55,879 nt of DNA from Alphaproteobacteria bacterium (GCA_041673665.1 JBAYXF010000001.1:1-55879); one strand, 5' to 3'; shown: positions 21,980 to 46,272, counted from the first letter of the stretch. Program-made: numbers and translations. The notes: generated by a model from the letters alone, not told the origin.

Positions 21980-22276
21980 TTATAATTGAGAAATAAAGTC
22001 TGGAAATCCATTGTCTTCTTCGTCTAATTTTTCTTCGTTTGATTCAGAAGGCGTGGCACATTTTTCGTTCGGCCCACGTGAAGTATCTATTTTAGATTGT
22101 TCGTCACTTACAACACGTCCATAGTGTTCCGCCATTTGTAAAAGACGTTCGCGCTCAATTGCGTCAGGCGTTTGACGTGCCTGATCCATATATTGTTTGC
22201 GTTTCTGACGCAGACGATGACAACGTTGAATCATAAGTCCAACAGACATTTGTTTTTTATTATTATTATTTTGCAT
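21980..22276 (-). CDS. DUF4167-like small basic protein
   Basis: 98 aa with a basic N-terminus and a LLQMAEHYGRV segment resembling the AEHY core of DUF4167 proteins common in Alphaproteobacteria. Confidence 0.5.
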   Translation of the reverse strand: MQNNNNKKQMSVGLMIQRCHRLRQKRKQYMDQARQTPDAIERERLLQMAEHYGRVVSDEQSKIDTSRGPNEKCATPSESNEEKLDEEDNGFPDFISQL

Positions 22277-22366
22277 ATTTTTTCTTTTCTATAAGTGGAA
22301 ATAAATCGCTAGCAAATCATCAAATTGCTTTACGATAATAAATATATTACAACGAGTGAAAATCAA

Positions 22367-22395
22367 TTGCAATAATTTTTTTTTATGGCTATTAT
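22367..22395 (+). promoter_or_regulatory. Candidate sigma70-type promoter for the pilin-like gene trio
   Basis: TTGCAA (22367-22372), 17-nt spacer, TATTAT (22390-22395). A strong SD AGGAGGG (22406-22412) lies 7 nt before the TTG start at 22420. AT-rich context makes chance matches likely. Confidence 0.3.
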
Positions 22396-22419
22396 CACAG
22401 TGTGTAGGAGGGATGCACC

Positions 22420-23856
22420 TTGCAAAGCGAAGCCCGTGGAAATTTTTTATTACAAGCTTTGCTTGCGATTGCCCTGGTAATGTTTTTTATGCCCTTTGTG
22501 GCACAAAAATTATCATCAAAGAAAAACGATTCCGAATTAAGCGCAATTGCACGCCAAGCAAACAGTGCTGCATATGCTGCACGTGAATTTATAAAAGCAA
22601 GCAAAGACAATCTTGCTTATGGTCAGCAACACTTTAAAGATGATGATTTTACCGATTTATTGGAACCGTTTGGTCTACCTTTGGGATTTGTTACACAAAC
22701 CAGTGCAAACCAGGAAATATCTCTTTTTACGGGAAAAAAAGAATCTGAAATTTTAAGTGTGATAGTTTTGCGTGGCGGAAATTTATCGGAACTTAAAAAA
22801 AGGGAGCTGCTTACGCGCATTGGGCCGGACGCCGCCATCGCTGATGCAGATGGAATTTTACATGGGATCGGTGGTTGGGAAAAGAATCTGAAAGATTTTA
22901 AAATCAAGCCGGATGTTTCGGCTGTTTACATTTTAATCCCTTCAGATGATGATTTTTCGGAACTTGTTCGTAGAAAAGCAGAGAATCTGGCCCGGGCAAA
23001 ATTTCATACTAATTTAAACATGGGAAATTTTTCTATAAAAAATGTTGTTTCGTTGACCACAAGAAATGCAGAATTTGACGTTGCTAATTTTGATACACTT
23101 TCTATTACTGGTTCCGGCGGGGATAGAAAATTTAAAAACGATATAGGTGTGTTGTCCACAAAGCGTGCGGTATTTCAAAAGGGGAAGGATGACAACCCAT
23201 TAAGCATTTATCGTGGCGATCTAAAAGCAACTGCATTGTATGCTCAAACATTATTTAAATATGGATTGCCAGGAACCATTTATGCAAACAGTGCTTCGCT
23301 AAATTCTTTATCTATGTCTGCTGGGCATACAGGATTTTATGGTATGTATGATTGGGATGTCCACAGTGATGTTATCTTAAACAATGTTTCTATAGATACA
23401 GAATATTTAGAAGTAAATGGTTTTATAAACGCTTCGCGCGGGCAAGACGTTTTTATTGATCAAGATGAGTTAACTTATTTCAGTAAAAGCGGAGTAGAAA
23501 CAGAATCTATAACCACGGCATTTATAACCTTACGAGATCAAATATCCAGTGCGTTATTATCTGGCGACGATAGTGCTATAATTATGGATATCAGGCCGGC
23601 CGGAGTCTCCGTGCTTCCTGACATTTTAGTAGACACCATAGATAATGATAATTTTCAAATTCTTAAAAATCCGGACTTGGATGATGGGGAAGTTGTTACT
23701 TGTAGAAGTATAATTTCATCACTTTCATCATCATCAACTTATAATTCAAAATCAGTAATACAAAATATTATTTGCCAGTTTGTATTTTGGCAACGACTGG
23801 AACGCCGTATAGATATTAAACAATGTTTGATAGATGGAAACAGTGATTGTGGATAA
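22420..23856 (+). CDS. Large type IV pilin-like protein P1 (prepilin-type N-terminus, 478 aa)
   Basis: The TTG start is preceded by AGGAGGG. N-terminus is MQSEARG|NFLLQALLAIALVMFFMPF, with Gly at -1, Gln at +5 and a 20-residue hydrophobic helix. It is paralogous to the next two ORFs. Four Cys lie in the last 51 aa. Confidence 0.6.
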   Translation: MQSEARGNFLLQALLAIALVMFFMPFVAQKLSSKKNDSELSAIARQANSAAYAAREFIKASKDNLAYGQQHFKDDDFTDLLEPFGLPLGFVTQTSANQEISLFTGKKESEILSVIVLRGGNLSELKKRELLTRIGPDAAIADADGILHGIGGWEKNLKDFKIKPDVSAVYILIPSDDDFSELVRRKAENLARAKFHTNLNMGNFSIKNVVSLTTRNAEFDVANFDTLSITGSGGDRKFKNDIGVLSTKRAVFQKGKDDNPLSIYRGDLKATALYAQTLFKYGLPGTIYANSASLNSLSMSAGHTGFYGMYDWDVHSDVILNNVSIDTEYLEVNGFINASRGQDVFIDQDELTYFSKSGVETESITTAFITLRDQISSALLSGDDSAIIMDIRPAGVSVLPDILVDTIDNDNFQILKNPDLDDGEVVTCRSIISSLSSSSTYNSKSVIQNIICQFVFWQRLERRIDIKQCLIDGNSDCG

Positions 23857-25096
23857 TTGCATTGATAAAAAATATTTTTATAAAGAGCAAAAAGGTTCAG
23901 GGTTAATGGAAACCCTGCTGGCAATTGCAATTGTTGGTGCAATAATGCCCTTTGCCTATAATAGTGTAATGGATATGAGTCGCAAAGTCGCGGATGTATC
24001 TGAATCAAAACGTATTATTGCATGGCAAGATCCAGTTATGGCATATGTTCGTAAAAATCAGGCAGATTGGCCATCAAATGCCCAGGTAGAATTTGATGAG
24101 GAAGAGGTTGTTAATATTGGCACAGGAGATAATCGTTTGCTAAAACCATATGCTGGGTTTATTGAAAAACGCGAGGGTTCGGGGGGAATATCAATAAATG
24201 CATATCTTGCTTTTAAGCCGGTTGATATAAAAAAAGTAAGGGTTGCGAATATCGTTCAAAATATAGGTGTTGATGCCGCAATGGTGCAATCTGGCGGTGA
24301 AGCCGTCAGCCAAAGCGGGTGGAGTATTTCATCGGAATTATTTACAGAAGGTGATTTAATTTTCAGGGTTTCTGATATTTTGGGTGAAGACGATGTATAT
24401 AAATATTTACACAGAACATATCTGGATGATAAAGAATTAAATACTATGCGGCGAGATTTGGATATGGCAAAGAACAGTATATCTGGGGTTGGGAAAATAA
24501 CGGCGCAAACTATAAATGCAACAGGCGCAAAAGCCTGGTTTGTTAATTCTTCAAAAGTTATAACAAACGAAATCTTTTTCCCAGAGGGGATGACAATTGA
24601 TGCGTCCAAGGCCATATTTGGGTCTATAACAGTAAATGGCGACGTTAATGGTTTTAGAAAAATTACAGCAGATAAATTAAAACATGTTGGGACAATGTCC
24701 AGTGCTACATGGGCAACCAAGGGGGATATAATTGCGGACTCGGTCAATATAAATGGACCGGTACATGTTCAGCGTGATATGGTTGTAAAATCAGAAAGCG
24801 CACGGACAATTACTGGGTTTGCTGGAATTCGTACCCAGGCGGTTGCTACGCCATATTTATATGCGGACAATTTAATTTTCCAGGCAGGTTATGGAATAAC
24901 AATTTCCAGTGATTTATTATATTCTAGTTCTGGCGAATCAATCACAATAGGTAGCTGGAGGTTTCCATCAACAACAGGGCCGGGATTTTCAGAATTGATT
25001 TTGAAAAAAACAAGCGATGAAGAATTTGGAGAAGCGCTGGCAACGCCAGATAGTGAAGATTTTTCTCCGCTGATGACAAGCGGGTGGAAAGATTAA
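23834..25096 (+). CDS. Large type IV pilin-like protein P2 (420 aa)
   Basis: N-terminus ...DKKYFYKEQKG|SGLMETLLAIAIVGAIMPF, with Gly at -1 and Glu at +5. The leader aligns with that of P3, which favours the ATG at 23834 over the internal ATG at 23906. It overlaps the P1 stop by 23 nt. Confidence 0.6.
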   Translation: METVIVDNCIDKKYFYKEQKGSGLMETLLAIAIVGAIMPFAYNSVMDMSRKVADVSESKRIIAWQDPVMAYVRKNQADWPSNAQVEFDEEEVVNIGTGDNRLLKPYAGFIEKREGSGGISINAYLAFKPVDIKKVRVANIVQNIGVDAAMVQSGGEAVSQSGWSISSELFTEGDLIFRVSDILGEDDVYKYLHRTYLDDKELNTMRRDLDMAKNSISGVGKITAQTINATGAKAWFVNSSKVITNEIFFPEGMTIDASKAIFGSITVNGDVNGFRKITADKLKHVGTMSSATWATKGDIIADSVNINGPVHVQRDMVVKSESARTITGFAGIRTQAVATPYLYADNLIFQAGYGITISSDLLYSSSGESITIGSWRFPSTTGPGFSELILKKTSDEEFGEALATPDSEDFSPLMTSGWKD

Positions 25097-25112
25097 GTAA
25101 TTTATAAAATAA

Positions 25113-26417
25113 ATGAAAAACAAAAGAAAATTTTTTAAAAATGAATACGGCGGAATGATGTTAGAAATTCTGCTGTCGTTGGCAATTACAGTTGCTGTTG
25201 TTCCATTTGTTATGCGCGAGTTAAATAGTCGTACGCATCGTGCTGAAAATGTTCGTATTGCGCGCGATATCAGCGAGACTAAAGAAGCCTTGGAAAGATA
25301 TATGACTGCTCATAAACTCAAATTATTAGAGCCGTCTGGTCGTGTAGTTATCAAGGTTAAAATTAGTGATTTATCAGAATACGGAAACATTCCAAAAGAT
25401 CATGAAAAATTTCAAGCACGCATAATAAAATCTAGGAGTATCAGCGGGCGTACGGTGTTGTCTGGTATGGTTATATATGATTCTGCAGAGATATCGCCAA
25501 TTCGTACACGCGAAATAGCTGAACTGGGTGGGGAATCATCAGGGTTCATAGATAATAACCAAGCACATGGAGTATTTGGTACGTGGCATTCTAGAACAAA
25601 TATTTTTGATGCAACGTTCAGTAACAATTCTGTCGTAGAAAATACAAATACAATTTTGTCAGGTGGGGATTTTTTATGGAGGCTTCCTTCAAAAAATTCT
25701 CTTGATGCATCAATGTCAACAGACTTGCTAATCGGAGATAACAGTATAGAAGATGTTTCAACAATTGATACGTATGGGGCGAATTTTACAGAAATTTTAA
25801 AATCGGGTTTAATTAATGTAGAAACGGTTCAGATTACACCACGTGCGGAATTGTCTGCAGAATTAAATGTTTCCGGGGAAACGCTAGTAATCGGAGCATT
25901 AACATCAGATTCAAGAAGCGCAGAAATAAGCGGAAGTTTATCATTAACTGATACAGGTACAGTTTCAAAATTAGAAGCAAGAGAGATATGGGTTGGGGAT
26001 TTGACTTTGAACGGATTAACTATTAATGGCAGTGCCGAGCCAGCAATTTTAAAAGTTAGTAGCACGATAGATATTACAAGAGGAAAAATTACAACAACAA
26101 CAGCGACTATTGGATATACTGGATCTGTTTCTCCAAAGATTGTTGTAACAGACCGTATAGAAGATCCATCAAATTCTTCATATTATTGGGATTTAACAAC
26201 AGATAAAGCATCTTTTTCAGATGTTTACTGTGCTGAACTAAATCAGATATTAAAAACCGCAATTACTAATGAATCACAAACTATAAGAACCAAGACGGAA
26301 ACAATAATAAGGGCAATTGCCGCAAACAGCAATGCTACTATTTCTGATTATGTCAAGGCATTAAGTGAAATTCAAACCAGTGTAACAGCGAAATATAATA
26401 ACTTGAATTTAGACTAA
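25113..26417 (+). CDS. Large type IV pilin-like protein P3 (434 aa)
   Basis: N-terminus MKNKRKFFKNEYG|GMMLEILLSLAITVAVVPF, with Gly at -1 and Glu at +5. It shares internal motifs with P1 and P2. Confidence 0.6.
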   Translation: MKNKRKFFKNEYGGMMLEILLSLAITVAVVPFVMRELNSRTHRAENVRIARDISETKEALERYMTAHKLKLLEPSGRVVIKVKISDLSEYGNIPKDHEKFQARIIKSRSISGRTVLSGMVIYDSAEISPIRTREIAELGGESSGFIDNNQAHGVFGTWHSRTNIFDATFSNNSVVENTNTILSGGDFLWRLPSKNSLDASMSTDLLIGDNSIEDVSTIDTYGANFTEILKSGLINVETVQITPRAELSAELNVSGETLVIGALTSDSRSAEISGSLSLTDTGTVSKLEAREIWVGDLTLNGLTINGSAEPAILKVSSTIDITRGKITTTTATIGYTGSVSPKIVVTDRIEDPSNSSYYWDLTTDKASFSDVYCAELNQILKTAITNESQTIRTKTETIIRAIAANSNATISDYVKALSEIQTSVTAKYNNLNLD

Positions 26418-26451
26418 TTCTGGATAAAATAATATAAAAATAAAAAAGAAA

Positions 26452-26930
26452 ATGAAAATAACGTGCCCTTTTTGCAAAGTAAATTATTCTGTTCGTAATG
26501 ATAATAATCATACATACGAATGTGCTGTATGTGGTTGTGTTTGGCGGGCACCGATCATTCAAAAAAAATCAAAAATATTGGTTTTCTCATTATACTTTTT
26601 GGTTTATTACTGGCTGCTTTATCTTTGGCCGCCATGATTTTATGGTTCCCACTTGGAAAGCAAAACGCTTTATCTGTTTATATGGACTCTGCACAATCGG
26701 TTGGCGATGTTTTAATTGTTTCAGGCCAGATTGAAAATAAGTCAGAAAAATTACACGGTATACCAGATTTAATGATTGTAATAAAAGATGATAATGATAC
26801 AGAAATATCAACACAAAAGTTTGCGCCACCAGCACCATTATTAGATGCCGGGGAAAAAACAAATTTTTCGGTTCAGGTTCATAATGTCCCAGAAAAAATA
26901 GCAAAAGTTTCAGTAGAGTTAAATGATTAA
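26452..26930 (+). pseudogene. MJ0042-type zinc-ribbon / TM / DUF3426-like protein, interrupted by a -1 frameshift
   Basis: Frame A (26452-) encodes MKITCPFCKVNYSV...YECAVCGCVW, a CxxC...CxxC zinc ribbon. Frame B (through 26930) encodes the expected TM helix (IGFLIILFGLLLAALSLAAMILW) and a beta-rich DUF3426-like domain. The frames meet at the A8 tract. Confidence 0.7.
26561..26568 (+). repeat. A8 homopolymer at the frameshift point (A_AAA_AAA in the upstream frame)
   Basis: Read directly: cattc-aaaaaaaa-tcaaaaat. One additional A would fuse the two frames. Confidence 0.9.
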
Positions 26931-26949
26931 TATGCAAAAGGTATTTAAT

Positions 26950-27405
26950 ATGAAAAAAATCTTTTTAACTATTTTGTTTTCAATAATTTGTATGTCCGCA
27001 TATGCAGCAATAAGCGCGGTAAGTATATTTTCTACCAGTACAGACTGGGAAAGGGTTACAGGATTACGCTATAGCCAATTTGATGTTTCTTTTGTGCGCG
27101 ATAAATCATTGGGCAGTAAAGGGATGGAGATTTATTTTCTAGATGGATTTCCATGCATAGGACAGGCTGAAACAGCCAGGGCTTGGATTTCCCCCAGTAA
27201 TTTTTCAAGCAAGGATAAAAAGGCAAACATGAACATCAGTTGTGTGCAACGTCCGAAACAAATTCGATTTGCATGGCGCGAAGCGAATGAAAAAGATTCT
27301 CAATCTAAAACAACCGGCATAATGACTTGTCAGATAGCCGGGGATGGACGTGAAATAGAAATTTTATTAAGTGATTGCGTCAAGGGGAAAAACTGGAATG
27401 AGTAA
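26950..27405 (+). CDS. Secreted hypothetical protein (about 151 aa)
   Basis: Sec signal MKKIFLTILFSIICMSAYA|A, with four Cys in the mature part. The start is taken at the ATG at 26950 rather than the track start at 26923. Confidence 0.5.
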   Translation: MKKIFLTILFSIICMSAYAAISAVSIFSTSTDWERVTGLRYSQFDVSFVRDKSLGSKGMEIYFLDGFPCIGQAETARAWISPSNFSSKDKKANMNISCVQRPKQIRFAWREANEKDSQSKTTGIMTCQIAGDGREIEILLSDCVKGKNWNE

Positions 27406-28357
27406 TACAAGAATATTTATTGCGAAAGAGTCTGACGTCAGTTTGCGGATGGATAAATTTTTGGTATATAATATGCCAGAATTTTCACGCAGTGAAATAC
27501 AGAAATTTATTATTAAAAGAATTCCAGATACAGATGAAATAAAATTCTCTGAAAAAATTAAACTGGGGGACAAGGTAGAAGTTATAATCCCAGAAAAAGA
27601 ACATAATCAATTACTCCCCATAAATAAAAAAATCAAATTTGAAATAGATGTCTTGTTCGAAGACGATGATATTATTGTTATAAATAAACCACGTGCTGTT
27701 GCTATGTATCCTGGCGCGGGTCGTGAAACAGATACTTTGGTTCAGCGTGTTTTATCGCATACCAATTTGTCCGTCCAGGGCGGCCCAATGCGTCCAGGAG
27801 TTGTGCATCGTTTGGACAAAGATACCAGCGGAATCGTAATTTTTGCAAAATCTGATGCGGCATATCGCGTGCTTATTAAAACATTTGCCAGACATGATTT
27901 ATCACGCAAATATATTGCTTTTGTTTGGGGTATTCCCAATTGGACCGAGGCTGATATCAGTGGCAACATCGGGCGTAGTGCAAAAAATCGTCAAAAAATG
28001 ACAATGTTAAAAGTCGGGGGAAAACATGCAGAAACCAGTGTCGAGGTCATAGGTGCATGGTCTGACGTTGGAATTTCTAAATTGCGTTGTACTTTGTTTA
28101 CTGGGCGCACACATCAGATACGTGTACATTTATCTGCACATGGATTCCCATTGGTATGTGATCCATTATATGGACGTGGAAGTGCGCGATTGGGCAGTGT
28201 AAAAAATCCAGAATTATTAGATTTTATAAAAACACATCATGGGCAAATGTTGCATGCTGAGGTTCTGGAATTAAAACATCCAATAACTGGTGAAATTATA
28301 AAATTAAAAACTAAATTGCCAGATGATATGAAAGAGCTGCAAGAAATTCTGGGCTAG
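27398..28357 (+). CDS. rluD: RluA-family 23S rRNA pseudouridine synthase (RluD-like)
   Basis: N-terminal S4-like domain (RMDKFL), catalytic HRLDKDTSGIVIFAKS, and GRTHQIRVHL. The start is taken at the ATG at 27398. Confidence 0.88.
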   Translation: MSNTRIFIAKESDVSLRMDKFLVYNMPEFSRSEIQKFIIKRIPDTDEIKFSEKIKLGDKVEVIIPEKEHNQLLPINKKIKFEIDVLFEDDDIIVINKPRAVAMYPGAGRETDTLVQRVLSHTNLSVQGGPMRPGVVHRLDKDTSGIVIFAKSDAAYRVLIKTFARHDLSRKYIAFVWGIPNWTEADISGNIGRSAKNRQKMTMLKVGGKHAETSVEVIGAWSDVGISKLRCTLFTGRTHQIRVHLSAHGFPLVCDPLYGRGSARLGSVKNPELLDFIKTHHGQMLHAEVLELKHPITGEIIKLKTKLPDDMKELQEILG

Positions 28358-28363
28358 GTTTTT

Positions 28364-28858
28364 CTATTTTATATTTGCGGCCATTTCGGTCGCTATTTTT
28401 TTAACTGAAATCATATATGGATTTATACATCCCATGCATCCAGTTTTTTTATCACGAAAATCACAATATTGAATAAAGCCGTAACAAGTGCTTACCTTTG
28501 GGATTATGGTTATAATTTTTTGTGGTTCGAAATCATAAGGATTTAAAAAAAGTATATTGTCGTGAGACGAAGAAAGTCTTAAAGTTGGCATATCACAAAA
28601 ATCGCTGGAACAAGACCCCTTTAAAAATTCTGGAGATATTTTTGAAGTATCAATTTTTTGTATTTCTTTTGAAACCGTTTTTATAAAAAGTTCTTTTAAT
28701 TCAAAATAATATAATGTTTTTGATTTTATAATAATACTGTCAGATCCCGGCCAAACGTCGTTCATACAAACCCGTGTTTTTTTTAAATGGTGATTATCAG
28801 GAAATTGTATTTCTAAAGTCCCTGTATATTTTTCTTCTTTTGGTTCAATATTTGGCAT
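28364..28858 (-). CDS. Hypothetical Cys-rich protein, 164 aa
   Basis: ORF with no signal peptide and clustered cysteines (CSSDFC, CYGFIQYC, CMGC). No family recognised. Confidence 0.45.
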   Translation of the reverse strand: MPNIEPKEEKYTGTLEIQFPDNHHLKKTRVCMNDVWPGSDSIIIKSKTLYYFELKELFIKTVSKEIQKIDTSKISPEFLKGSCSSDFCDMPTLRLSSSHDNILFLNPYDFEPQKIITIIPKVSTCYGFIQYCDFRDKKTGCMGCINPYMISVKKIATEMAANIK

Positions 28859-38156: not shown

Positions 38157-38771
38157 TTATTCCTTAAAATCATCAGGGTTTATATTTAATTCTGTTTTTA
38201 TTCTGTGCTCTAACCTTTTTTGAATTTCATCAAAAACTTGCAATAAAGCCGGTTCTGAAGCAAACATATCACGATAAGACTTGCTGAAATACCATTTCCA
38301 ATAAACCCCATTATCATAAGAACCAATATGATCCAACGTCTTTGAAAATAATGTTTGGAAACATACATCTAATCTATCAAGCATTTTTACAAATTTTGAT
38401 TCTGGTGTTTTTTGTTCCTCGTATTCTTGCCATAAAGTTTCAAACTCTGAATTATTCAGCAATTTTGTAAATTCATTCATTATTTCAGTTTCGTCTTTTT
38501 CTTTTTTTTCACGTGCCGCATCATCATTTAATGTTTTATGCGCTGGAATATCATGAGATTTACTTTCTGGCAAGTCGTGCGCAGCACAAAGTTTTAAAAC
38601 GCGTTCCATATTAAGTGTTACGGATGCTTTTGGAACAAATGTTATCGCCATCAATGACAGCATAAAACAATGTGCAGCCACAGATTGTTGTTCCCCATCG
38701 GACATTCTGGTTGTGCGTTTTTCATAATGTAAATGTTCCGCTGTTTTAAAAAATTCAATAATATTATTCAT
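38157..38771 (-). CDS. HD-domain phosphohydrolase (YfbR-like 5'-nucleotidase family)
   Basis: QSVAAHCF...AAHDLPESKSHDIP matches the H...HD...D pattern of HD_3 proteins. The start is taken at the ATG at 38771, overlapping the upstream stop by 8 nt. Confidence 0.6.
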   Translation of the reverse strand: MNNIIEFFKTAEHLHYEKRTTRMSDGEQQSVAAHCFMLSLMAITFVPKASVTLNMERVLKLCAAHDLPESKSHDIPAHKTLNDDAAREKKEKDETEIMNEFTKLLNNSEFETLWQEYEEQKTPESKFVKMLDRLDVCFQTLFSKTLDHIGSYDNGVYWKWYFSKSYRDMFASEPALLQVFDEIQKRLEHRIKTELNINPDDFKE

Positions 38772-40074
38772 CCAAATACTCGCGCAGTTTATCTCCGGAA
38801 AGTTCAGCGGCCGGTTCATCGTCCGCAGAGTCTACGATTGAAATAACACGTGGGCTCATGAATATCACCAATTCTGCAAATGGGTTTATTAATGTTTCAG
38901 ATGTTGTTACAAAGCTGTGTGTTGGGATGCCGATAATTACATAATTATCACCCAGTTTTGTTGGAACGTTAAAACTGGCCAGTTCCCCAGCGGTTGTACG
39001 CAGTGCAATTTTCGCATCTACTTTTTTCATATCGGCGTATTTTCCATATTTACCAGTTGCGCCAACGATTAAATCAGTTTCCAATCTGTCTTCGCGTGAG
39101 CATTGACCAATATCAAATCTGCTTTGCCAGCCGTTTGGTATTACAAATGTTCCCTGGGAAATTAAAACTACATTTGCTTGGTCGGATAAAAATGTTTGTA
39201 ATGTTTTTGTGTTTATTTCTGGGGATACAACCAGCAATCTGCCAACAACGCCAGGGATAGACATTTTGACATTCTTTTCCCCAAATGCGGGCAGCATATT
39301 CATCCAAACAATTGGATTGTCGGTACGTGGATATACACGGTATACATCCATATCCCATGCAACCAAGAATTTTTTATTTCCGATATCGGAAACGATATCA
39401 CGAACTTTCTTTTCGATTTGATAATTCCCTTCGAACGCCAAGGTTTTATCTTCCCAGTTAGTTATTAAATTACGCAAGTCAGCACCATGCATTGCATCAA
39501 TTAATGCCATGATTACGTATTGATCTTTAGGCATTTTCATCAGCCATTTTCCACGACTGGAAATACGAAGCTCTCTGGTGTCGTCGTCATAGGTATAGTA
39601 AGTTTTACCAAGTTTACAAATTAGTTCTACGGCGTCTTCTAGTGTTCCAGATGTAATCTCACCACTGATTAAGTCAGGTAATTTCTCACTGGCAACAATT
39701 TTAATTTTTGTTCCATCAAGTAATTTTTCCAAAACAGCTGGTACATTTTTTTTCTGGAAAGAAAAATTTTCTACAGCAAAATCTGGAAGATTATCGCCCT
39801 TGTTCAAACGAACAATTTCAACGGGCGTTGTTGGCAGAACAGATAATATACTTTGGTTGTCCCAATCAACTTTGCATCGTTTTGGCAAATCAATTGCAAA
39901 TTTTTGTGCGGTATCTGTTGTTAAAGCAGCCTTGCGTGGAAAGATCGGAACAGAATGTTCGTCCACTACAATGTTTTCAACCACTTGGACAGTGTCATAT
40001 TGTTGTTGATTTCGACTTTGAAATTGTTGGCATGCACCAACAAATAAAATCAAAAGCAAATATAATTTTCTCAT
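38764..40074 (-). CDS. Outer-membrane lipoprotein with a divergent secretin-like C-terminal domain
   Basis: Lipobox LFVGAC. The C-terminal half reads NVVLISQGTFVIPNGWQSRFDIG ... ASFNVPTKLGDNYVIIGIPT ... FAELVIFMSPRVISI. This parallels the secretin pattern (vLssP.i.t.nn..a.i.vG ... t.v.v.dG.tvviGGl ... eLlifitPrii). Confidence 0.4.
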   Translation of the reverse strand: MRKLYLLLILFVGACQQFQSRNQQQYDTVQVVENIVVDEHSVPIFPRKAALTTDTAQKFAIDLPKRCKVDWDNQSILSVLPTTPVEIVRLNKGDNLPDFAVENFSFQKKNVPAVLEKLLDGTKIKIVASEKLPDLISGEITSGTLEDAVELICKLGKTYYTYDDDTRELRISSRGKWLMKMPKDQYVIMALIDAMHGADLRNLITNWEDKTLAFEGNYQIEKKVRDIVSDIGNKKFLVAWDMDVYRVYPRTDNPIVWMNMLPAFGEKNVKMSIPGVVGRLLVVSPEINTKTLQTFLSDQANVVLISQGTFVIPNGWQSRFDIGQCSREDRLETDLIVGATGKYGKYADMKKVDAKIALRTTAGELASFNVPTKLGDNYVIIGIPTHSFVTTSETLINPFAELVIFMSPRVISIVDSADDEPAAELSGDKLREYLDE

Positions 40075-41648: not shown

Positions 41649-43421
41649 ATGAATTTAACAGAAGGCTCTTTTTTGTGTTTAGATATAGGTTCGGGCGGGG
41701 TGCACGCGGTCGCTGCACGGGTTTGTTTTGGACGGCTTAAAGTTTCATCAAATATATATGTTGAATCCAGGGATATTGTGTATGCGGTCAAGACGGCGGT
41801 GGATAATTTAGAAGAACAAATAGGGGCCAGATTCGACAAGGCGTTTGTTACGGGAAATTTCGGAGAAATTAAATCAGAAATTTTTTCAAGAAAAAGCGTA
41901 TGGGAAACAGAACGAAAAATTACACCAAATGATATTCTAGAACAAATATCAGATGTTACCCAAGATGATATTTCTGTATTACATATAATGCCTTTACGTT
42001 ATGATTTAGGGGGTGCGCGAAATCTTTCTAACCCGCTGGGGCATATTGATCATGCATTGCATTCGGTGTTTAATGTAATTGCTTATTTGAACAAGGGTTT
42101 AATGCGCGCAAAATCTGCGTTGCATGCTGCACATCTAGAGTCCGAAGGTTTTTTCGATCCGATGTTTTTGCTGGGATTGTCTGCGCGCAAAGCATCAGAA
42201 AATTCTGTATTCATAGATTTTGGCGCAGAATTTACCAGCGTTTCTATGTGGACCGCGCGTGGGCCGATGTTGATTAAAAAAATACCAATGGGCGGGATTG
42301 ATATTACAAGGGCAATTGCTAATACTTTTAATTTACCAATTATAGAAGCAGAAAGATTAAAAATTTCCAGCATGAATCTGGAACAATCTGATATGGATAG
42401 ATTTACTCCGGCGGATTCTAAATATGATATAACCAGATTTGATGTGAACGAAATAGCAAGCAGTGTTTTTTCTGAAATTATATGTCAGGTTGGTGATGTT
42501 TTAAGCACAGGAATAGAAAAATATAATCCAGAACGACTGTATGTAAGTGGTGGTGGCTCTGGTACTAACGGATTAGAAAAGTTTTTAAAAAAAGAATTTG
42601 GTATGCCGGTTAAAAATATGGGCTCGTTCGGTATAGTTAATTCATTGGCAGAATTTGTATGGAATACTGAATCTGAAAGGGTCAAAGGATATTTAGAACG
42701 CAGAAAAAAATGGGAAAAATTTTTTAACTTTTTAGCAGCACCATTGAATTGGAGATTTTATCCACGTCGTAAAAAAATTATTCCGATTATGCCCAGTACT
42801 TTATGTTGGGACATGCGAAGTTCAGACACTTATGCCAGATTTGAATCTGCAGATATCAGTATGATTCATGTTGATATAATGGATGGATTTTATGTTGAAA
42901 GAATTGCCAGTGGAATTGATGAACTTCGATTCATACGTGCGCATACCGCGGCTCATTTACACGTTCATTTAATGACGGAAAACCAGGCGACTTGGACGAA
43001 AGAAGCGATTGAATGTGGTGCGGACACAATTATTGTTTCAACCGGAACAAATGGTGTAATTCGTGCGTTAAAAGAAATACAATCTGCGGGAAAACGTTCT
43101 GGAATTGCGTTACATCCAGAATCTTCGTTAGAAGTTATAGCCCCAGTTTTAAGGGGTGTTGATGAAGTAATGGTAATGTCAGTTATCCCAGGAGAATCAG
43201 GACAAGAGTTTATAGAAGAGTCAATATCAAGAATTGCTTCTCTTGCTAATACCAGACGCAAACATGGATTAAAATTTAAAATTTCTGTTGATGGCGGAAT
43301 AAATCCGGAAACGGCGAAAAAATGTTGGGCGGCTGGCGCGGATTTTCTAGTCTCTGGCAGTTTTTTAAGTGGTGCTCCAGATTTTGCCGTAGCGGTGCAA
43401 GAACTTTTGGAAAAAAAGTAG
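41649..43421 (+). CDS. ftsA: FtsA-like cell division protein fused in frame to a ribulose-phosphate 3-epimerase-like domain
   Basis: aa 1-350 are an actin-fold FtsA (LDIGSGGVHAV, 1C/SHS2 region ITPNDI..VLHIMPLRYDLGG, GGIDITRAIA, LYVSGGGSG). aa 351-370 (RRKKWEKFFNFLAAPLNWRF) look like the FtsA amphipathic membrane-targeting helix. aa 375-590 carry RPE motifs (IHVDIMDG, HVHLM, MSVIPGESGQEF, VDGGI, GADFLVSGS). No stop codon separates the parts. Confidence 0.7.
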   Translation: MNLTEGSFLCLDIGSGGVHAVAARVCFGRLKVSSNIYVESRDIVYAVKTAVDNLEEQIGARFDKAFVTGNFGEIKSEIFSRKSVWETERKITPNDILEQISDVTQDDISVLHIMPLRYDLGGARNLSNPLGHIDHALHSVFNVIAYLNKGLMRAKSALHAAHLESEGFFDPMFLLGLSARKASENSVFIDFGAEFTSVSMWTARGPMLIKKIPMGGIDITRAIANTFNLPIIEAERLKISSMNLEQSDMDRFTPADSKYDITRFDVNEIASSVFSEIICQVGDVLSTGIEKYNPERLYVSGGGSGTNGLEKFLKKEFGMPVKNMGSFGIVNSLAEFVWNTESERVKGYLERRKKWEKFFNFLAAPLNWRFYPRRKKIIPIMPSTLCWDMRSSDTYARFESADISMIHVDIMDGFYVERIASGIDELRFIRAHTAAHLHVHLMTENQATWTKEAIECGADTIIVSTGTNGVIRALKEIQSAGKRSGIALHPESSLEVIAPVLRGVDEVMVMSVIPGESGQEFIEESISRIASLANTRRKHGLKFKISVDGGINPETAKKCWAAGADFLVSGSFLSGAPDFAVAVQELLEKK

Positions 43422-43527: not shown

Positions 43528-46272
43528 ATGAGAATAAAAAAAGCAATTATTGTTGGTTTAGTGCTACCTTTGGTATCAGAAATCTGTTCAATGTCAGCTG
43601 GGGCTGTAACTTATATGACGACGGCTTCGTCGCGTCCAAGTACGACTGCACGCATGCCGACGTTGTCATACAGCGCGTCGTCCAGCACATCGTCCAGCAC
43701 GACATCAACAAATGCTGGCTTGCTTGCAACTTGTGCAAATCCATTGCCAGATCGTTTGACATCGGGACGTTGTATCGACAGATATGATTCTTGTTTGCGT
43801 CAGGATAACGTTTGTGGTGAACATTTTGAACTTTGCTATAATTTAAAACAATTTAATAAATCTCGTATTATGTGCCAAGAATATTTGGCGCAATGTCCAG
43901 CCGAAGCAGTTAAAGCAATATTTGGAAATTCTGTAACGACATCTAATGATTTGTTGTCGGCAAACCGCACCATGTGTGATGGGGAATCTCTTTTGACCAA
44001 AAGAACATTTTCACCAGCGTTGGGCGATATTGGGGTTGCCGCCGACAGTCGTATAGACTTGGCCATTAAAGAGGGTAAAAACTGGGCAGCCGCTAACAGT
44101 GTTAAAACATGTAATAAAATTGCGGACGCTTGTATACAAAATGCTTGTAAGAAATCCCCACAAAAATGTATTTCTTTGGATGGGTTTTCTGACATAGATG
44201 CATCTGAAATGGTTAATATCGCCACATCTGGCGAAACTACATTGCGTATAAATGCAGATATGCTGACAATGTGGCTTAATAATATGGCATGGGATGGTGA
44301 TAATGTTAAAAATTACATCAAAGAACAATGCCGTGATACTGTTGGTTCTAATGAGTGGTGCTTTATGGTCACAAATGGTACGCCGGCGAAAGAAGTTGAT
44401 TTAACCGACAGCTTTAATATTCAAGAAGTTTACCAAGATATTATGTATAATGGCGTTGGTGCTCGTTGGAAAATGGCACAGTCCAAGATAAAAGAATGGG
44501 CTGCATTAGCAACTAAGAAATCCGTAGAACAATGTAAAGATGCAATGACAGATTGTGCCGTGAATGCTTGTGGTGAAGGATCCAAGGCCCGTTGCTATGG
44601 TTTGGCTAAAGATGGCAATACTGTCAGTATAAAAAATAAAGCTGGTTCTGATATTACAGGCCAATGTGAAAATTTGATTGAAAATAATCAATATTGTAAA
44701 GATGTATTCCGTAATAAAGATACGGGCGAAGATGGTGACGTTTGGGCAGCGGTATGGACCGAGGACTTAATGGGCGCAATTGTCGGATTGGATTCAGATT
44801 TACAAAAAGCATTTAACGAAGCAGCAGTTGCTCAAATGCGTAGCAGTTGCCAGGCTCAGGCTGAAAAATGTGTAGAAAGTGAATGTGGAACAGATTTCTC
44901 GCGTTGCTTTATTACCAGTATAGAGGCAAAGAAAAATAGCAGTGTTTCTTTTTCTGAGGGTTCAGCAATAAGCAGCAATTTATATGCTGGTGGATTTGAT
45001 GAAGTTTTGGCACGTAACTTGTGTATGTTAAAGATTAAAAAATATACAGATTGTATAGATTACTTTGATGTTCAGTATGCCAAGGCAACAACCGGGACCA
45101 GTGCAGATTCTTGGGGAACGTCAAGCAATGTTCGTAATGCATGGCTAGATGCTGCAAATAGTGATTCTGCAGATAAGGTTTGCCGTGTATCGGAAACTTA
45201 TATAGATCAAGTTGATGAATCTGGAAATGCTGTTGATACTACTAAAAAATTAGCACCTAAGGTTAAAACTTGTGCTACACAAGAACGTAGTATATTTGAT
45301 GGTTTATTGTCAGATATCAGCAAACGTGCTAATTCTGTATTAGAACGCGAAGCAAATGATCTTAAGAATGCATGTGAAAATAGCAATGCCAAGGGTTCAA
45401 CCGGTAAAAATTATATTTGGGCGGCTTTGTCTGACTTGGATTCATCCGATGAATATGATGGGTTCAGCGATGTTACTGCAACCAGTAATCCGTTTGACGG
45501 GTTCTGTGCGGTCAAGGTAACGATCCGTTCCAACAATTCCAAGGTAAACGATGCGCTGGGTAGTGATAAATATATGTATTACCCAAAGGGTACATCTATG
45601 CAATGTTTGGGTTTGACAACAAGCGAGTTGGAAAAAGTTGAACGTGCAGTTGCATCAGATGTTAATTTCTGCGGCAAAGGCGAAACAGCATCAACAGGCG
45701 GATGTGTAGAAAAATTGTCCGGGTTGCAAAAAACCCTTCGGATTGGTGGCGCAACAATTGCTGGTGTGGCAGTCGGCGGTTTGGGTGGAACCTTGGCAGG
45801 GAATGCTTTGGGGAACGCTACTACAAAAAGTAGCAAGCTGTCCGCTGCAGATACTGCTTTATATGCAGACTGTCAAAGCTGTTTTAAAGCAGGGGGTAAA
45901 GGATATAGTGGATTACAAGCATGTGTAGCTGTTGATGATCCAGATAACCCAGATGCAACCGAAGCATTAGCAAAATGTAATAACAAAATAAGCGAACTAC
46001 AAGCAAAGAGAGGCACTGGTAAAAAATCTGGCAGTAGTGGTTTGTTAAATATGTCTAGTACTGGTGGTAAAATAGGCGCTATTGCTGGTGCAGGGCTTGG
46101 TGGTTTAGCCGGTGGACTTCTTGCTGGTAATGCTATCAAGGAAAATGCAGATACAAAGCTTGAAGATGCACGGCAACAAGCCATAGCAGACTTTAATGCT
46201 AACACAGATATAAATTGTTATATCAATGGCAAAAAAGTCGCATCGTATGGTCAGGATATGATTGTTAAATAA
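43528..46272 (+). CDS. Large secreted cysteine-rich protein with C-terminal glycine-zipper segments (914 aa)
   Basis: Signal peptide MRIKKAIIVGLVLPLVSEICSMSAGA, then a Ser/Thr-rich linker. There are 38 Cys in the mature part, including repeated C-x6-C-x4-C-x6/7-C modules. Two Gly-zipper hydrophobic stretches are present (IGGATIAGVAVGGLGGTLAGNALG and GGKIGAIAGAGLGGLAGGLLAGNAI). A strong terminator follows. Confidence 0.6.
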   Translation: MRIKKAIIVGLVLPLVSEICSMSAGAVTYMTTASSRPSTTARMPTLSYSASSSTSSSTTSTNAGLLATCANPLPDRLTSGRCIDRYDSCLRQDNVCGEHFELCYNLKQFNKSRIMCQEYLAQCPAEAVKAIFGNSVTTSNDLLSANRTMCDGESLLTKRTFSPALGDIGVAADSRIDLAIKEGKNWAAANSVKTCNKIADACIQNACKKSPQKCISLDGFSDIDASEMVNIATSGETTLRINADMLTMWLNNMAWDGDNVKNYIKEQCRDTVGSNEWCFMVTNGTPAKEVDLTDSFNIQEVYQDIMYNGVGARWKMAQSKIKEWAALATKKSVEQCKDAMTDCAVNACGEGSKARCYGLAKDGNTVSIKNKAGSDITGQCENLIENNQYCKDVFRNKDTGEDGDVWAAVWTEDLMGAIVGLDSDLQKAFNEAAVAQMRSSCQAQAEKCVESECGTDFSRCFITSIEAKKNSSVSFSEGSAISSNLYAGGFDEVLARNLCMLKIKKYTDCIDYFDVQYAKATTGTSADSWGTSSNVRNAWLDAANSDSADKVCRVSETYIDQVDESGNAVDTTKKLAPKVKTCATQERSIFDGLLSDISKRANSVLEREANDLKNACENSNAKGSTGKNYIWAALSDLDSSDEYDGFSDVTATSNPFDGFCAVKVTIRSNNSKVNDALGSDKYMYYPKGTSMQCLGLTTSELEKVERAVASDVNFCGKGETASTGGCVEKLSGLQKTLRIGGATIAGVAVGGLGGTLAGNALGNATTKSSKLSAADTALYADCQSCFKAGGKGYSGLQACVAVDDPDNPDATEALAKCNNKISELQAKRGTGKKSGSSGLLNMSSTGGKIGAIAGAGLGGLAGGLLAGNAIKENADTKLEDARQQAIADFNANTDINCYINGKKVASYGQDMIVK

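Follow-up and report, generated by a model that had tools for sequence, protein, structure and literature searches.

Three adjoining, co-oriented genes encode large pilin-like proteins (P1, P2 and P3) in the window, the 55,879-nucleotide alphaproteobacterial stretch of DNA analysed here, as the preliminary description had it. As judged from profile comparisons, the first 210-250 residues of each protein share remote homology with the N-terminal region of PilV, which serves as minor pilin and adhesin in the type IVb thin pilus of IncI1/IncI2 plasmids such as R64 and TP114 (Pfam Shufflon_N, PF04917). These residues span the class III signal, a hydrophobic alpha-1 helix, a pilin-type sheet and the two conserved segments described below as Block 1 and Block 2. 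The trio probably makes up the tip of a type IVb pilus that serves in contact with other cells, and we favour, with modest confidence, a reading in which P1-P3 are three non-interchangeable subunits of a heteromeric tip/initiation complex of a chromosomal R64-type pilus.

Gene organization and conserved neighbourhood

P1 (478 aa; 22420..23856, + strand), P2 (420 aa; 23834..25096, +) and P3 (434 aa; 25113..26417, +) are open reading frames for PilV-like putative minor pilins, with a promoter-like site for the trio at 22367-22395 and a TTG start codon of P1 located 7 nt 3' of an AGGAGG Shine-Dalgarno sequence. In the window, 23 nt at the 5' end of P2 overlap the 3' end of P1, and overlaps of 14 nt and 4 nt occur in a relative (L002); this overlapping or abutting of the three genes suits co-production. 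Hundreds of uncultured Alphaproteobacteria from the gut, whose genomes are very small, carry the same fixed trio on the chromosome. A search of related genomes, as the preliminary description had proposed, recovered the trio as a fixed set in 82 of 84 chromosomal loci (taken from 281 species representatives), with the gene order up-/P1/P2/P3/s1/s2/rluD and a strict 1:1:1 ratio free of copy-number variation.

A divergent gene encoding 98 aa (21980..22276, -) adjoins P1 in all 84 loci and shows a weak match to DUF4167 (24.2 bits, cut-off 25). Downstream of P3, s1 (26452..26930, +; present in 82 loci) encodes a protein with an MJ0042-type zinc ribbon, one transmembrane segment and a DUF3426/FxLYD-like domain, although its matches to Zn_ribbon_4, DUF3426 and FxLYD are weak and all below threshold; in the window, and only there, a frameshift at an A8 run (26561-26568) divides the gene into two frames. 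The product of the conserved downstream gene s2 (26923..27405, +), ~150-160 aa long, has a signal peptide and conserved Cys, and matched no known family. An rluD-type pseudouridine synthase gene (27371..28357, +) is the last gene of the co-oriented module and is followed by a terminator-like hairpin (28377-28393). The P1-P3 module, in which s1 and s2 are two small envelope proteins, is embedded among housekeeping genes. With rluD as the module end, this neighbourhood is uninformative on pili.

Processing signals

All three proteins carry the features of a class III signal, with Gly at -1, Glu or Gln at +5 and a hydrophobic alpha-1 helix, and these are conserved in orthologues. The predicted leader of P1 is MQSEARG and its mature N-terminus NFLLQALLA (RG/NFLLQALLA), with Gln at +5. 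This Gln replaces Glu in nearly all P1 orthologues; Q12 is invariant across a 53-sequence alignment and G-x4-Q is present in 110 of 120 P1 homologues. P2 has a leader of ~21 aa ending in KG and a mature N-terminus SGLMETLLAIAIV (KG/SGLMETLLAIAIV) with Glu at +5 (E26, invariant in 22 homologues), while P3 has the leader MKNKRKFFKNEYG and the mature N-terminus GMMLEILLSLAI (YG/GMMLEILLSLAI), also with Glu at +5. The Pfam model N_methyl (PF07963) matched none of P1, P2 and P3, and scored 13.7 bits against the P2 orthologue of L002 (cut-off 21.2).

We consider it quite unlikely that P1-P3 are bitopic inner-membrane proteins that keep their N-terminal helix uncleaved and serve in the envelope together with s1 and s2, rather than as filament subunits. 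Such a role would suit the core-genome, housekeeping context and the conservation of the trio alongside s1 (zinc-ribbon membrane protein), s2 (secreted Cys protein) and rluD, as well as the missing N_methyl match and the lack of a peptidase among the related loci examined, but Gly -1 and Glu/Gln +5 are conserved lineage-wide, the trio is clearly homologous to PilV, a known minor pilin, and relatives possess pilus genes.

Homology to PilV and paralogy of the trio

The resemblance to PilV raised in the preliminary description is borne out as remote homology. For each protein, a profile of its orthologues was compared by hhalign with a six-member PilV profile, resulting in probabilities of 98.1% for P1 (E 1e-13), 98.7% for P2 (E 3e-16) and 99.0% for P3 (E 6e-18) over 208-248 columns (P2, 248; P3, 232), with the Trp of Block 1 and Block 2 aligned. 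The P1 family also aligned with a single PilV from a Lelliottia plasmid (97.4% probability, E 1.4e-11), a bona fide PilV (Shufflon_N, E 9e-115) that contains the Block 2 motif. Furthermore, an HMM of the P2 family retrieved a protein (P0351) from a protein library at E 1.4e-10 that itself passes Pfam Shufflon_N with 57.6 bits, providing a transitive link from the P2 family to PilV, and tblastn of P2 against plasmids gave weak matches, almost all of them to pilV or prepilin genes. Homology was thus found to bona fide PilV, while the PF04917 gathering score (27.5 bits; control PilV, 384 bits) was not reached: P1, P2 and P3 had no Shufflon_N match at E up to 1, and one P1 orthologue (P0011) scored 22.1 bits (E 1.3e-4), with the other orthologues lacking a match.

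P1-P3 are paralogues with a common pilin-type N-terminus and ~220-300 homologous residues. Pairwise alignment, suggested as a check in the preliminary description, supported this regional homology by BLASTP (P1/P2, E 7e-8, residues 4-215 versus 18-225; P1/P3, E 7e-9; P2/P3, E 8e-8, reaching ~residue 308) and by profile-profile comparison built from 82-83 orthologues of each protein (E 3e-12, 1.7e-14 and 2e-22 over 226-293 columns). By sequence, the three would be anciently duplicated minor pilins.

Block 1 comprises aa 112-160 of P1 (22753..22899, +), aa 119-170 of P2 (24188..24343, +) and aa 115-165 of P3 (25455..25607, +), the last aligning with the 'GA..W..LS.[FY]G' segment of PilV. It had been described as a strand-helix-loop segment ending in Trp, in agreement with the AlphaFold2 (AF2) model of P1, in which a strand-helix-hairpin arrangement ends at the conserved Trp153, which aligns with the Trp of PilV. 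Block 2 comprises aa 182-209 of P1 (LVRRKAENLARAKFHTNLNMGNFSIKNV; 22963..23046, +), aa 192-219 of P2 (LHRTYLDDKELNTMRRDLDMAKNSISGV; 24407..24490, +) and aa 188-215 of P3 (LWRLPSKNSLDASMSTDLLIGDNSIEDV; 25674..25757, +), which aligns in the PilV profile comparison. The pattern originally given for Block 2 matches P2 and P3 with identical spacing, but fails at the first position of P1, which has Glu instead of Phe, Tyr or Leu. The corrected pattern, L.R.{10}[MF]..[DN]L.[MI]..[NF]SI..V, matches all three proteins with identical spacing and none of 2000 shuffles of P1-P3 (0/2000). Its core ([YV][LV]xR ... [MF]xxxL[DN][ML]GG..I.N) is retained across 82-83 orthologues per protein.

C-terminal halves

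BLASTP aligned no part of the C-terminal halves between paralogues, in line with their proposed divergence. The C-terminal domain of P1 contains four conserved Cys, with C428, C452 and C477 invariant and C469 conserved in at least 90% of homologues. The C-terminal tail of P3 is helical and conserved (NATvxDFMNAIxEIQxRVxAKYxxLNLE), and its only Pfam match is a sub-threshold one to FliD_C (E 0.008). AF2 predicted N-domains of P1 (helix 9-64 plus sheet; pLDDT 80-93 for residues 10-175) and P2 (helix 23-62; pLDDT 72-90) with a helix packed against an antiparallel sheet. For the C-terminal halves, the earlier suggestion of a beta-rich structure agrees with models of P1 and P2 consisting mostly of beta strands, but confidence is low in these regions (P1 178-400 and P2 184-420; pLDDT mostly <55), and a beta-rich fold is therefore regarded as plausible. 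Foldseek against the PDB gave no significant match for the AF2 models, whose C-terminal halves are poorly modelled: the best match of P2 was 3eoi (R64-type PilM; E 0.014, TM 0.50), followed by the pilin PilA1 (E 0.23), and P1 matched nothing below E 0.69. A phage tail-fibre fold, also raised in the preliminary description, had neither sequence support, as P1 and P2 lacked PHROGs matches and P3 had only two sub-threshold matches of unknown function, nor reliable fold support; the matches obtained by Foldseek against BFVD (TM ~0.1, rmsd ~20 Å) lay on the low-confidence part of the model.

Both halves of P1, P2 and P3 are under purifying selection, with omega (dN/dS) values of 0.05-0.31 for both halves of every protein. 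Contrary to the expectation that the C-terminal halves evolve faster, they show no sign of diversification and are conserved as well as the N-terminal halves; in P1, the C-terminal half is the best-conserved part.

These observations bear on the earlier proposal that the trio is a hard-wired alternative to shufflon inversion, in which each pilus would bear one of three PilV-like adhesins and three fixed receptor specificities would replace shufflon switching. The homology to PilV is real, the C-terminal halves differ among P1-P3, and the C-termini of PilV variants set recipient specificity in R64 and TP114 (PMC9045228). However, copy number is constant and strictly 1:1:1 in 82/84 loci, the C-terminal omega values give no sign of diversification, and the overlapping genes fit co-production, which together make alternative tips unlikely. 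Glu5 is moreover absent from P1 alone, in nearly all orthologues, which argues that P1-P3 are not equivalent in assembly. Divergence among the three sets in at ~residue 220-300, well within the constant region of PilV; in TP114, only the last 69-113 residues of PilV are variable, after a constant 345 (PMC9045228). Neither sfx-like repeats nor Rci are present: a repeat search of 22300-27500 recovered only short chance-level repeats and no sfx inverted repeats, and the window contains a single tyrosine recombinase gene, of XerC/D type (285 aa), at a distance of 20 kb.

Pilus machinery in related genomes

Relatives of the order Rs-D84 (Candidatus Enterousia) encode PilO-, PilP-, PilQ- (ATPase), PilR- (platform) and PilS-like (major pilin) proteins elsewhere on the chromosome. 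In one of these (L077), matches to PAP_PilO (28 bits, gathering 26.7), pilP_fam (35.5 bits, gathering 34.65), T2SSE and T2SSF were identified, along with a 152-aa pilin matching PilS_N (24.1 bits versus 22). In 56 of 84 loci, a gene for a PilS-like pilin is found 2 kb from the trio, and a pilO-P-Q-R-like cluster and the trio are located ~135-150 kb apart on one Enterousia contig of 315,805 bp. In the 56-kb window and in the flanks of its closest relatives, genes for pilus machinery, a major pilin or a prepilin peptidase are absent, and neither secretin nor prepilin peptidase was found among the related loci examined. On the reading favoured here, the window's own genome would also encode pilus machinery. 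A survey of Rs-D84 genomes reports type IV pili for another lineage, not for Rs-D84 (PMC12306168).

The gene content of the relatives could also be taken to indicate a short periplasmic pseudopilus for T2SS-like secretion or for DNA or nutrient uptake, with the trio as a GspI-J-K-like cap instead of part of an extended adhesive pilus. The ATPase and platform proteins score best against GspE and GspF models, a PilN-type secretin was not found near the pil genes, one of the three proteins lacks Glu5 like GspK, JGI and NCBI pipelines label some orthologues PulG or T2SS protein, and DNA uptake would be useful to organisms in which nucleotide synthesis is missing. We nonetheless regard this arrangement as improbable, as the GspE (218 versus 630) and GspF (71 versus 424) scores are far under the equivalog cut-offs, the PilO, PilP and PilS matches point specifically to R64-type type IVb pili, and the homology of the trio is to PilV, with no NCBIfam matches to GspH-K.

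Proposed model

We hypothesize that a prepilin peptidase cleaves the leaders of P1-P3, which would be made together and form a single heteromeric P1-P2-P3 complex, assembling via alpha-1 helices and homologous stalk regions. This complex would initiate assembly of the pilus and occupy its tip, with P1, the sole member without Glu5, as the candidate for the first, outermost position. A pilus can dispense with Glu5 in its first subunit, and most T2S, T4a and BFP systems have just one minor pilin without it (PMC5207764). The three differing, conserved C-terminal parts may jointly form a putative binding surface. Genomes of Rs-D84/Enterousia are mostly <1 Mb and lack biosynthetic pathways, and the organisms are proposed to depend on partners (PMC12306168). 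As they are unable to make amino acids, nucleotides or lipids, a likely use of the pilus would be attachment to partner or host cells, or taking up material from them.

Comparison with known systems

Like PilV of R64 and TP114, P1-P3 combine a class III signal with ~210-250 homologous N-terminal residues, including the Block 1 Trp and a '[YL]xR...ELNxMxxxLDMGGNxIxN' motif, followed by a beta-rich region (for P1-P3 a low-confidence prediction) at a size of 410-490 aa, and in relatives they accompany PilO/P/Q/R/S-type genes. In contrast to the single pilV gene, there are three ancient paralogues, which lack shufflon, sfx repeats and Rci, are chromosomal in a housekeeping neighbourhood and, in the window, are not beside pilU or pilS; no pil genes surround the trio there, unlike in the pilI-V thin-pilus operon with its peptidase and major pilin. 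Furthermore, the window proteins lack the Pfam match of PilV, and their C-terminal 200-260 residues are unrelated to those of PilV and conserved rather than variable. At +5, P1 has Gln and the Lelliottia PilV has Asp. Shufflon-less PilV homologues of integrative elements and plasmids, such as PilV2 of Pseudomonas PAPI-1-type islands and that of plasmid pA506, are each one fixed PilV-type minor pilin of a type IVb pilus cluster, likewise without DNA inversion (PMC5297154). They occur as one copy per system inside the pil operon and are linked to conjugation genes, whereas here three copies lie apart from the machinery on reduced chromosomes.

CofB of ETEC CFA/III and TcpB of Vibrio cholerae TCP have long beta-rich C-terminal domains after the pilin domain, initiate pilus assembly and are proposed to be located at the tip (PMC5207764); the CofB crystal is a homotrimer according to the account in PMC5207764 (its references 98 and 99). 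P1-P3 would resemble them as large putative type IVb minor pilins with a predicted pilin domain and a long C-terminal part, but there the minor pilin is single and retains Glu5, compared with three different proteins here, one without Glu5. A P1-family profile retrieved no pilin from PDB sequences, and Foldseek with the P1 and P2 models gave no match to CofB or TcpB. In GspH-I-J-K of type II secretion and FimU-PilV-W-X of type IVa pili, several different minor pilins are encoded in tandem, with only one of them lacking Glu5 and capping the filament (PMC5207764). Pfam and NCBIfam indicated no homology of P1-P3 to these proteins, and P1-P3 are two to three times larger; the likeness would be one of logic only, serving as a working model for the trio.

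Gene arrangement and conserved genomic module

The three PilV-like proteins P1 (22420-23856, 478 aa), P2 (23834-25096, 420 aa) and P3 (25113-26417, 434 aa) are encoded by tandem, co-oriented ORFs, the first of which starts with a TTG codon located 7 nt 3' of an AGGAGG sequence. The reading frames of P1 and P2 share 23 nt, and a gap of 16 nt separates P2 from P3; the interval 22963-25766 given in the preliminary description extends from the Block 2 motif of P1 to that of P3. A promoter/terminator scan around the trio yielded signals that were overall not above chance and are suggestive only. The remainder of the window is ordinary chromosome, containing aspS, uvrB, tsaE, secB, mltA, ruvC, mnmE, recA, kdsB, kdsA, bipA, serS, rluD, lolCDE, ftsQ/A, xerC/D-type genes, lptF/G, greA, mutL, secDF and ctp, and no pilus or secretion machinery was identified among these genes. 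Two ORFs, at 43528-46272 (+ strand, 914 aa) and 38764-40074 (- strand, 436 aa), had no Pfam match at E 1e-5. One 590-aa ORF (41649-43421) combines an FtsA domain (aa 187-322) with a complete ribulose-phosphate 3-epimerase domain (aa 381-572), the result either of the fusion of two genes or of the loss of a stop codon.

In a scan of one genome per species, a P1 relative was present in 281 species, all of them uncultured Alphaproteobacteria, which comprise 'Candidatus Enterousia', termite-gut 'Rickettsiales' MAGs, and rumen and gut MAGs. A search of related genomes for the same trio recovered its order in 82 of 84 loci, the remaining two being cut short, and the conserved module consists of a divergent gene for a 90-100-aa DUF4167-like protein, P1, P2, P3, two small envelope-protein genes (s1, a zinc-ribbon/transmembrane/DUF3426-like protein; s2, a secreted Cys protein of ~160 aa) and rluD. 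The genes flanking this module vary by clade, with serS in the clade of the window and dnaX in Enterousia. None of s1, s2 and the upstream gene exceeded 20% probability against twelve R64-type pil-region proteins of a Lelliottia plasmid (hhalign). One of the retrieved loci (L046) belongs to a MAG described in PMC12306168. Rs-D84/Enterousia genomes are mostly <1 Mb and provide for no synthesis of amino acids, nucleotides or lipids, and the bacteria are probably reliant on partner cells (PMC12306168). The retention of the trio in chromosomes mostly <1 Mb without most biosynthetic pathways (PMC12306168) argues for an essential role.

The product of s1 (26452-26930) combines a zinc ribbon with a transmembrane segment and a DUF3426/FxLYD-like domain. 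In the window, an A8 run (26561-26568) breaks this gene into two frames. The gene is unbroken (158-184 aa) in 80 of 80 relatives, including one with a P1 that is 91% identical; the break reflects an error in sequencing the homopolymer, a frameshift of recent origin or a slippage site.

Paralogy and remote homology to PilV

P1, P2 and P3 are paralogues. BLASTP aligned the three pairs with E values of 7e-8, 7e-9 and 8e-8, confined to the first 215-308 residues and with no alignment beyond them. Profile-profile comparisons built on 82-83 orthologues per protein were stronger (P1-P2, E 3e-12, 293 columns; P1-P3, E 1.7e-14, 226 columns; P2-P3, E 2e-22, 251 columns). Since these alignments span 226-293 columns, homology extends somewhat past Block 2, the fixed-spacing motif common to the trio. 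The relatedness noted from sequence inspection is therefore real according to both pairwise and profile alignments, and the strings assigned to Block 1, a strand-helix-hairpin segment ending at Trp, were found at their described places. The identical spacing of Block 2 also stands, but its first position had been misassigned for P1, which has Glu there. The corrected pattern, L-x-R-x10-[MF]-x2-[DN]-L-x-[MI]-x2-[NF]-S-I-x2-V, matches all three proteins with the same spacing and 0 of 2000 shuffles, and column counts on the family alignments showed that its core is kept in the orthologues of P1, of P2 and of P3.

Pfam and NCBIfam scans of P1-P3 returned nothing usable, with no match for the window proteins. 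A tblastn search of P2 against 72,556 plasmids gave weak matches alone (E 0.09-9), nearly all located in pilV or prepilin genes and covering P2 residues 177-357. One of the plasmids, from Lelliottia, encodes a genuine PilV (L004 12031-13272; Shufflon_N E 9e-115) in a pilL-V cluster with rci, and this protein contains the same Block 2 motif within a 32-residue stretch. The P1 family aligned to this single PilV with 97.4% probability (hhalign, E 1.4e-11, 219 columns). With a profile built on six PilV proteins, taken from various plasmids other than R64 (AP005147), probabilities reached 98.1% for P1 (E 1e-13), 98.7% for P2 (E 3e-16) and 99.0% for P3 (E 6e-18), with the Block 1 Trp and Block 2 aligned to PilV in each case. 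Independently of this profile comparison, a P2-family HMM searched against 1.84 billion representatives matched a protein (P0351) at E 1.4e-10 that passes Shufflon_N at 57.6 bits. The PilV resemblance suggested in the preliminary description thus proved right as remote homology over the first ~200 of the 324 Shufflon_N positions (hhalign, HMM), and P1-P3 are not members of Shufflon_N by the Pfam criterion. NCBI names two orthologues 'PilV', which was not reproduced with NCBIfam; the name probably derives from the sub-threshold Shufflon_N match of one of them, a P1 orthologue scoring 22.1 bits against a threshold of 27.5. Neither the P1-family profile nor PilV recovered a relative from the sequences of the PDB, and PilV thus has no relative of solved structure that is recognisable by sequence.

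Among the best 150 representatives matched by the P2-family profile, 40 are large proteins of 0.8-1.6 kaa (P0330-P0411) that share the P1-P3-type N-domain and have prepilin-type N-termini (e.g. QKG/SMMVEALAMLGLI); one passes Shufflon_N. They seem to constitute a class of giant PilV-like minor pilins of metagenomic bacteria. Residues 179-295 of the Lelliottia PilV, comprising the motif and the following repeats, weakly matched phrog_32308, a phage family of unknown function (E 5e-4); this family was not matched by P1-P3 in PHROGs.

Pilin-like features of P1, P2 and P3

All three N-termini consist of a basic leader with a terminal Gly followed by a hydrophobic helix, and the predicted processing-site sequences (position marked by a slash) are RG/NFLLQALLA in P1, KG/SGLMETLLAIAIV in P2 and YG/GMMLEILLSLAI in P3. 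Glu at position +5 is retained in the orthologues of P2 and P3. The corresponding residue of P1 is Gln, which is invariant in a 53-sequence alignment, and G-x4-Q occurs in 110 of 120 homologues. In the AF2 models of P1 (pLDDT 80-93, residues 10-175) and P2 (pLDDT 72-90, residues 50-180), the N-terminus forms a long helix that packs against an antiparallel sheet. Foldseek searches of the P2 model against the PDB gave marginal matches, the best being 3eoi, PilM of an R64-type cluster (E 0.014, TM 0.50), followed by the Clostridioides difficile pilin PilA1 (E 0.23); the P1 model had no match below E 0.69. The C-terminal halves, described beforehand as beta-rich, are predicted to be so by AF2 with low confidence. 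P1 alone of the trio has four conserved Cys, situated within its confidently modelled C-terminal domain, which would suit an extracytoplasmic location. A tail-fibre relation of the trio found no support in PHROGs. Fibre and baseplate matches of the P1 model in BFVD (Foldseek) had TM ~0.1 in a low-confidence model region and were rejected as meaningless.

Pilus genes in related genomes

In the related locus L077, the region 5' of the trio contains pil-like genes in the R64 order O-P-Q-R, with matches to PAP_PilO (28 bits, gathering score 26.7) and pilP_fam (35.5, 34.65) and genes for a T2SSE ATPase and a T2SSF platform protein, as well as a 152-aa pilin matching PilS_N (24.1, threshold 22). In 56 of 84 loci, the gene for this PilS-like protein is located 2 kb 5' of the trio, and the ATPase is 85-100% identical across many MAGs. 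In one Enterousia genome, a 315,805-bp contig carries both the O-P-Q-R cluster (145,860-167,494) and the trio (296,215-315,805). The retrieved loci contained neither a secretin nor a prepilin peptidase, and a search of the window and the flanks of its closest relatives for a small pilin, an ATPase, a platform protein, a secretin or a peptidase found none, so that for the genome of the window itself the pilus machinery is something we infer.

The candidate PilS-like major pilin (L077 7423-7881) has a 6-aa leader and Arg at +1 (SG/RSLIEVIGV), which is unusual for type IV pilins; its gene is placed between dnaX and a gene for an OmpA-domain lipoprotein, and its family showed no significant relation to the Lelliottia PilS (hhalign). 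Directly 5' of the Enterousia PilO-like gene, L087 6447-7968 encodes a lipoprotein (138 aa) and a predicted outer-membrane beta-barrel protein (329 aa) with a C-terminal Phe, and no secretin. A human-gut relative encodes a VirD4/TraG-type T4SS coupling protein (L002 1018-3225) 7 kb upstream of the trio, so that a type IV secretion system may also be present in reduced genomes of this group.

A genome survey reported type IV pili for another lineage and not for Rs-D84 (PMC12306168), a gap that the trio and the PilO/P/Q/R/S-like genes of its relatives fill with concrete candidates for cell contact by presumed symbionts or parasites.

A putative heteromeric tip complex and comparison with known systems

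The tip or initiation complex of T2S, type IVa and BFP systems is built from several minor pilins, and Glu5 is missing from just one of them, since nothing lies above the first subunit for it to neutralise (PMC5207764). The large type IVb minor pilins CofB, a homotrimer, and TcpB initiate assembly and are assigned a tip position (PMC5207764 and references therein). By analogy, the most plausible reading of the trio is a single heteromeric complex, in which P1 would act as the cap, the N-domains and stalk common to P1-P3 would constitute the assembly part, and the three distinct conserved C-termini would provide the working surface. While the paralogy of the trio, its homology to PilV and its conservation throughout the lineage are demonstrated, cleavage, complex formation, tip location and a role in attachment are inferred. 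An asymmetric heterotrimeric tip capped by P1, which lacks Glu5, serving as the partner-cell attachment/uptake organelle of the obligately partner-dependent Rs-D84 lineage, is a tentative and rather doubtful proposal. If true, a plasmid-type conjugative pilus adhesin would serve a lineage with reduced genomes as its core 'host-contact' device, and the complex would offer the first structural model for how a PilV-type protein is placed on a pilus, a position that is unsettled (PMC9045228). The trio represents a natural test case for a possible trimeric action of PilV-type proteins at the pilus tip. Its main value is twofold: it supplies candidate genes for cell contact in a lineage of reduced genomes that is poorly understood, and it represents a natural PilV variant composed of three subunits.

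As known from plasmids, PilV is encoded by one gene, and the adhesin is diversified by a shufflon; its N-terminal module occurs here in three fixed, co-inherited paralogues. The preliminary description, while right on the PilV-like nature of the trio, had proposed a hard-wired substitute for shufflon inversion, which the data do not support. Across the lineage, each protein has a conserved C-terminal half: in bins of 40 residues, identity to the window protein averages 27-49% in the N-terminal half of P1 and 41-69% in its last four C-terminal bins, is flat at 31-42% in P2, and varies between 25 and 53% in P3. Values of dN/dS against three relatives were 0.05-0.31 throughout; those of the C-terminal halves were somewhat raised in P2 and P3 but not in P1. 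Moreover, copy number is fixed, P1 is not equivalent to P2 and P3 at +5, the genes overlap, and neither sfx-type repeats nor Rci were found at the trio or in the window. The TP114 shufflon alters the last 69-113 residues alone, after a constant 345 (PMC9045228), whereas the paralogues of the trio already diverge from ~residue 220-300.
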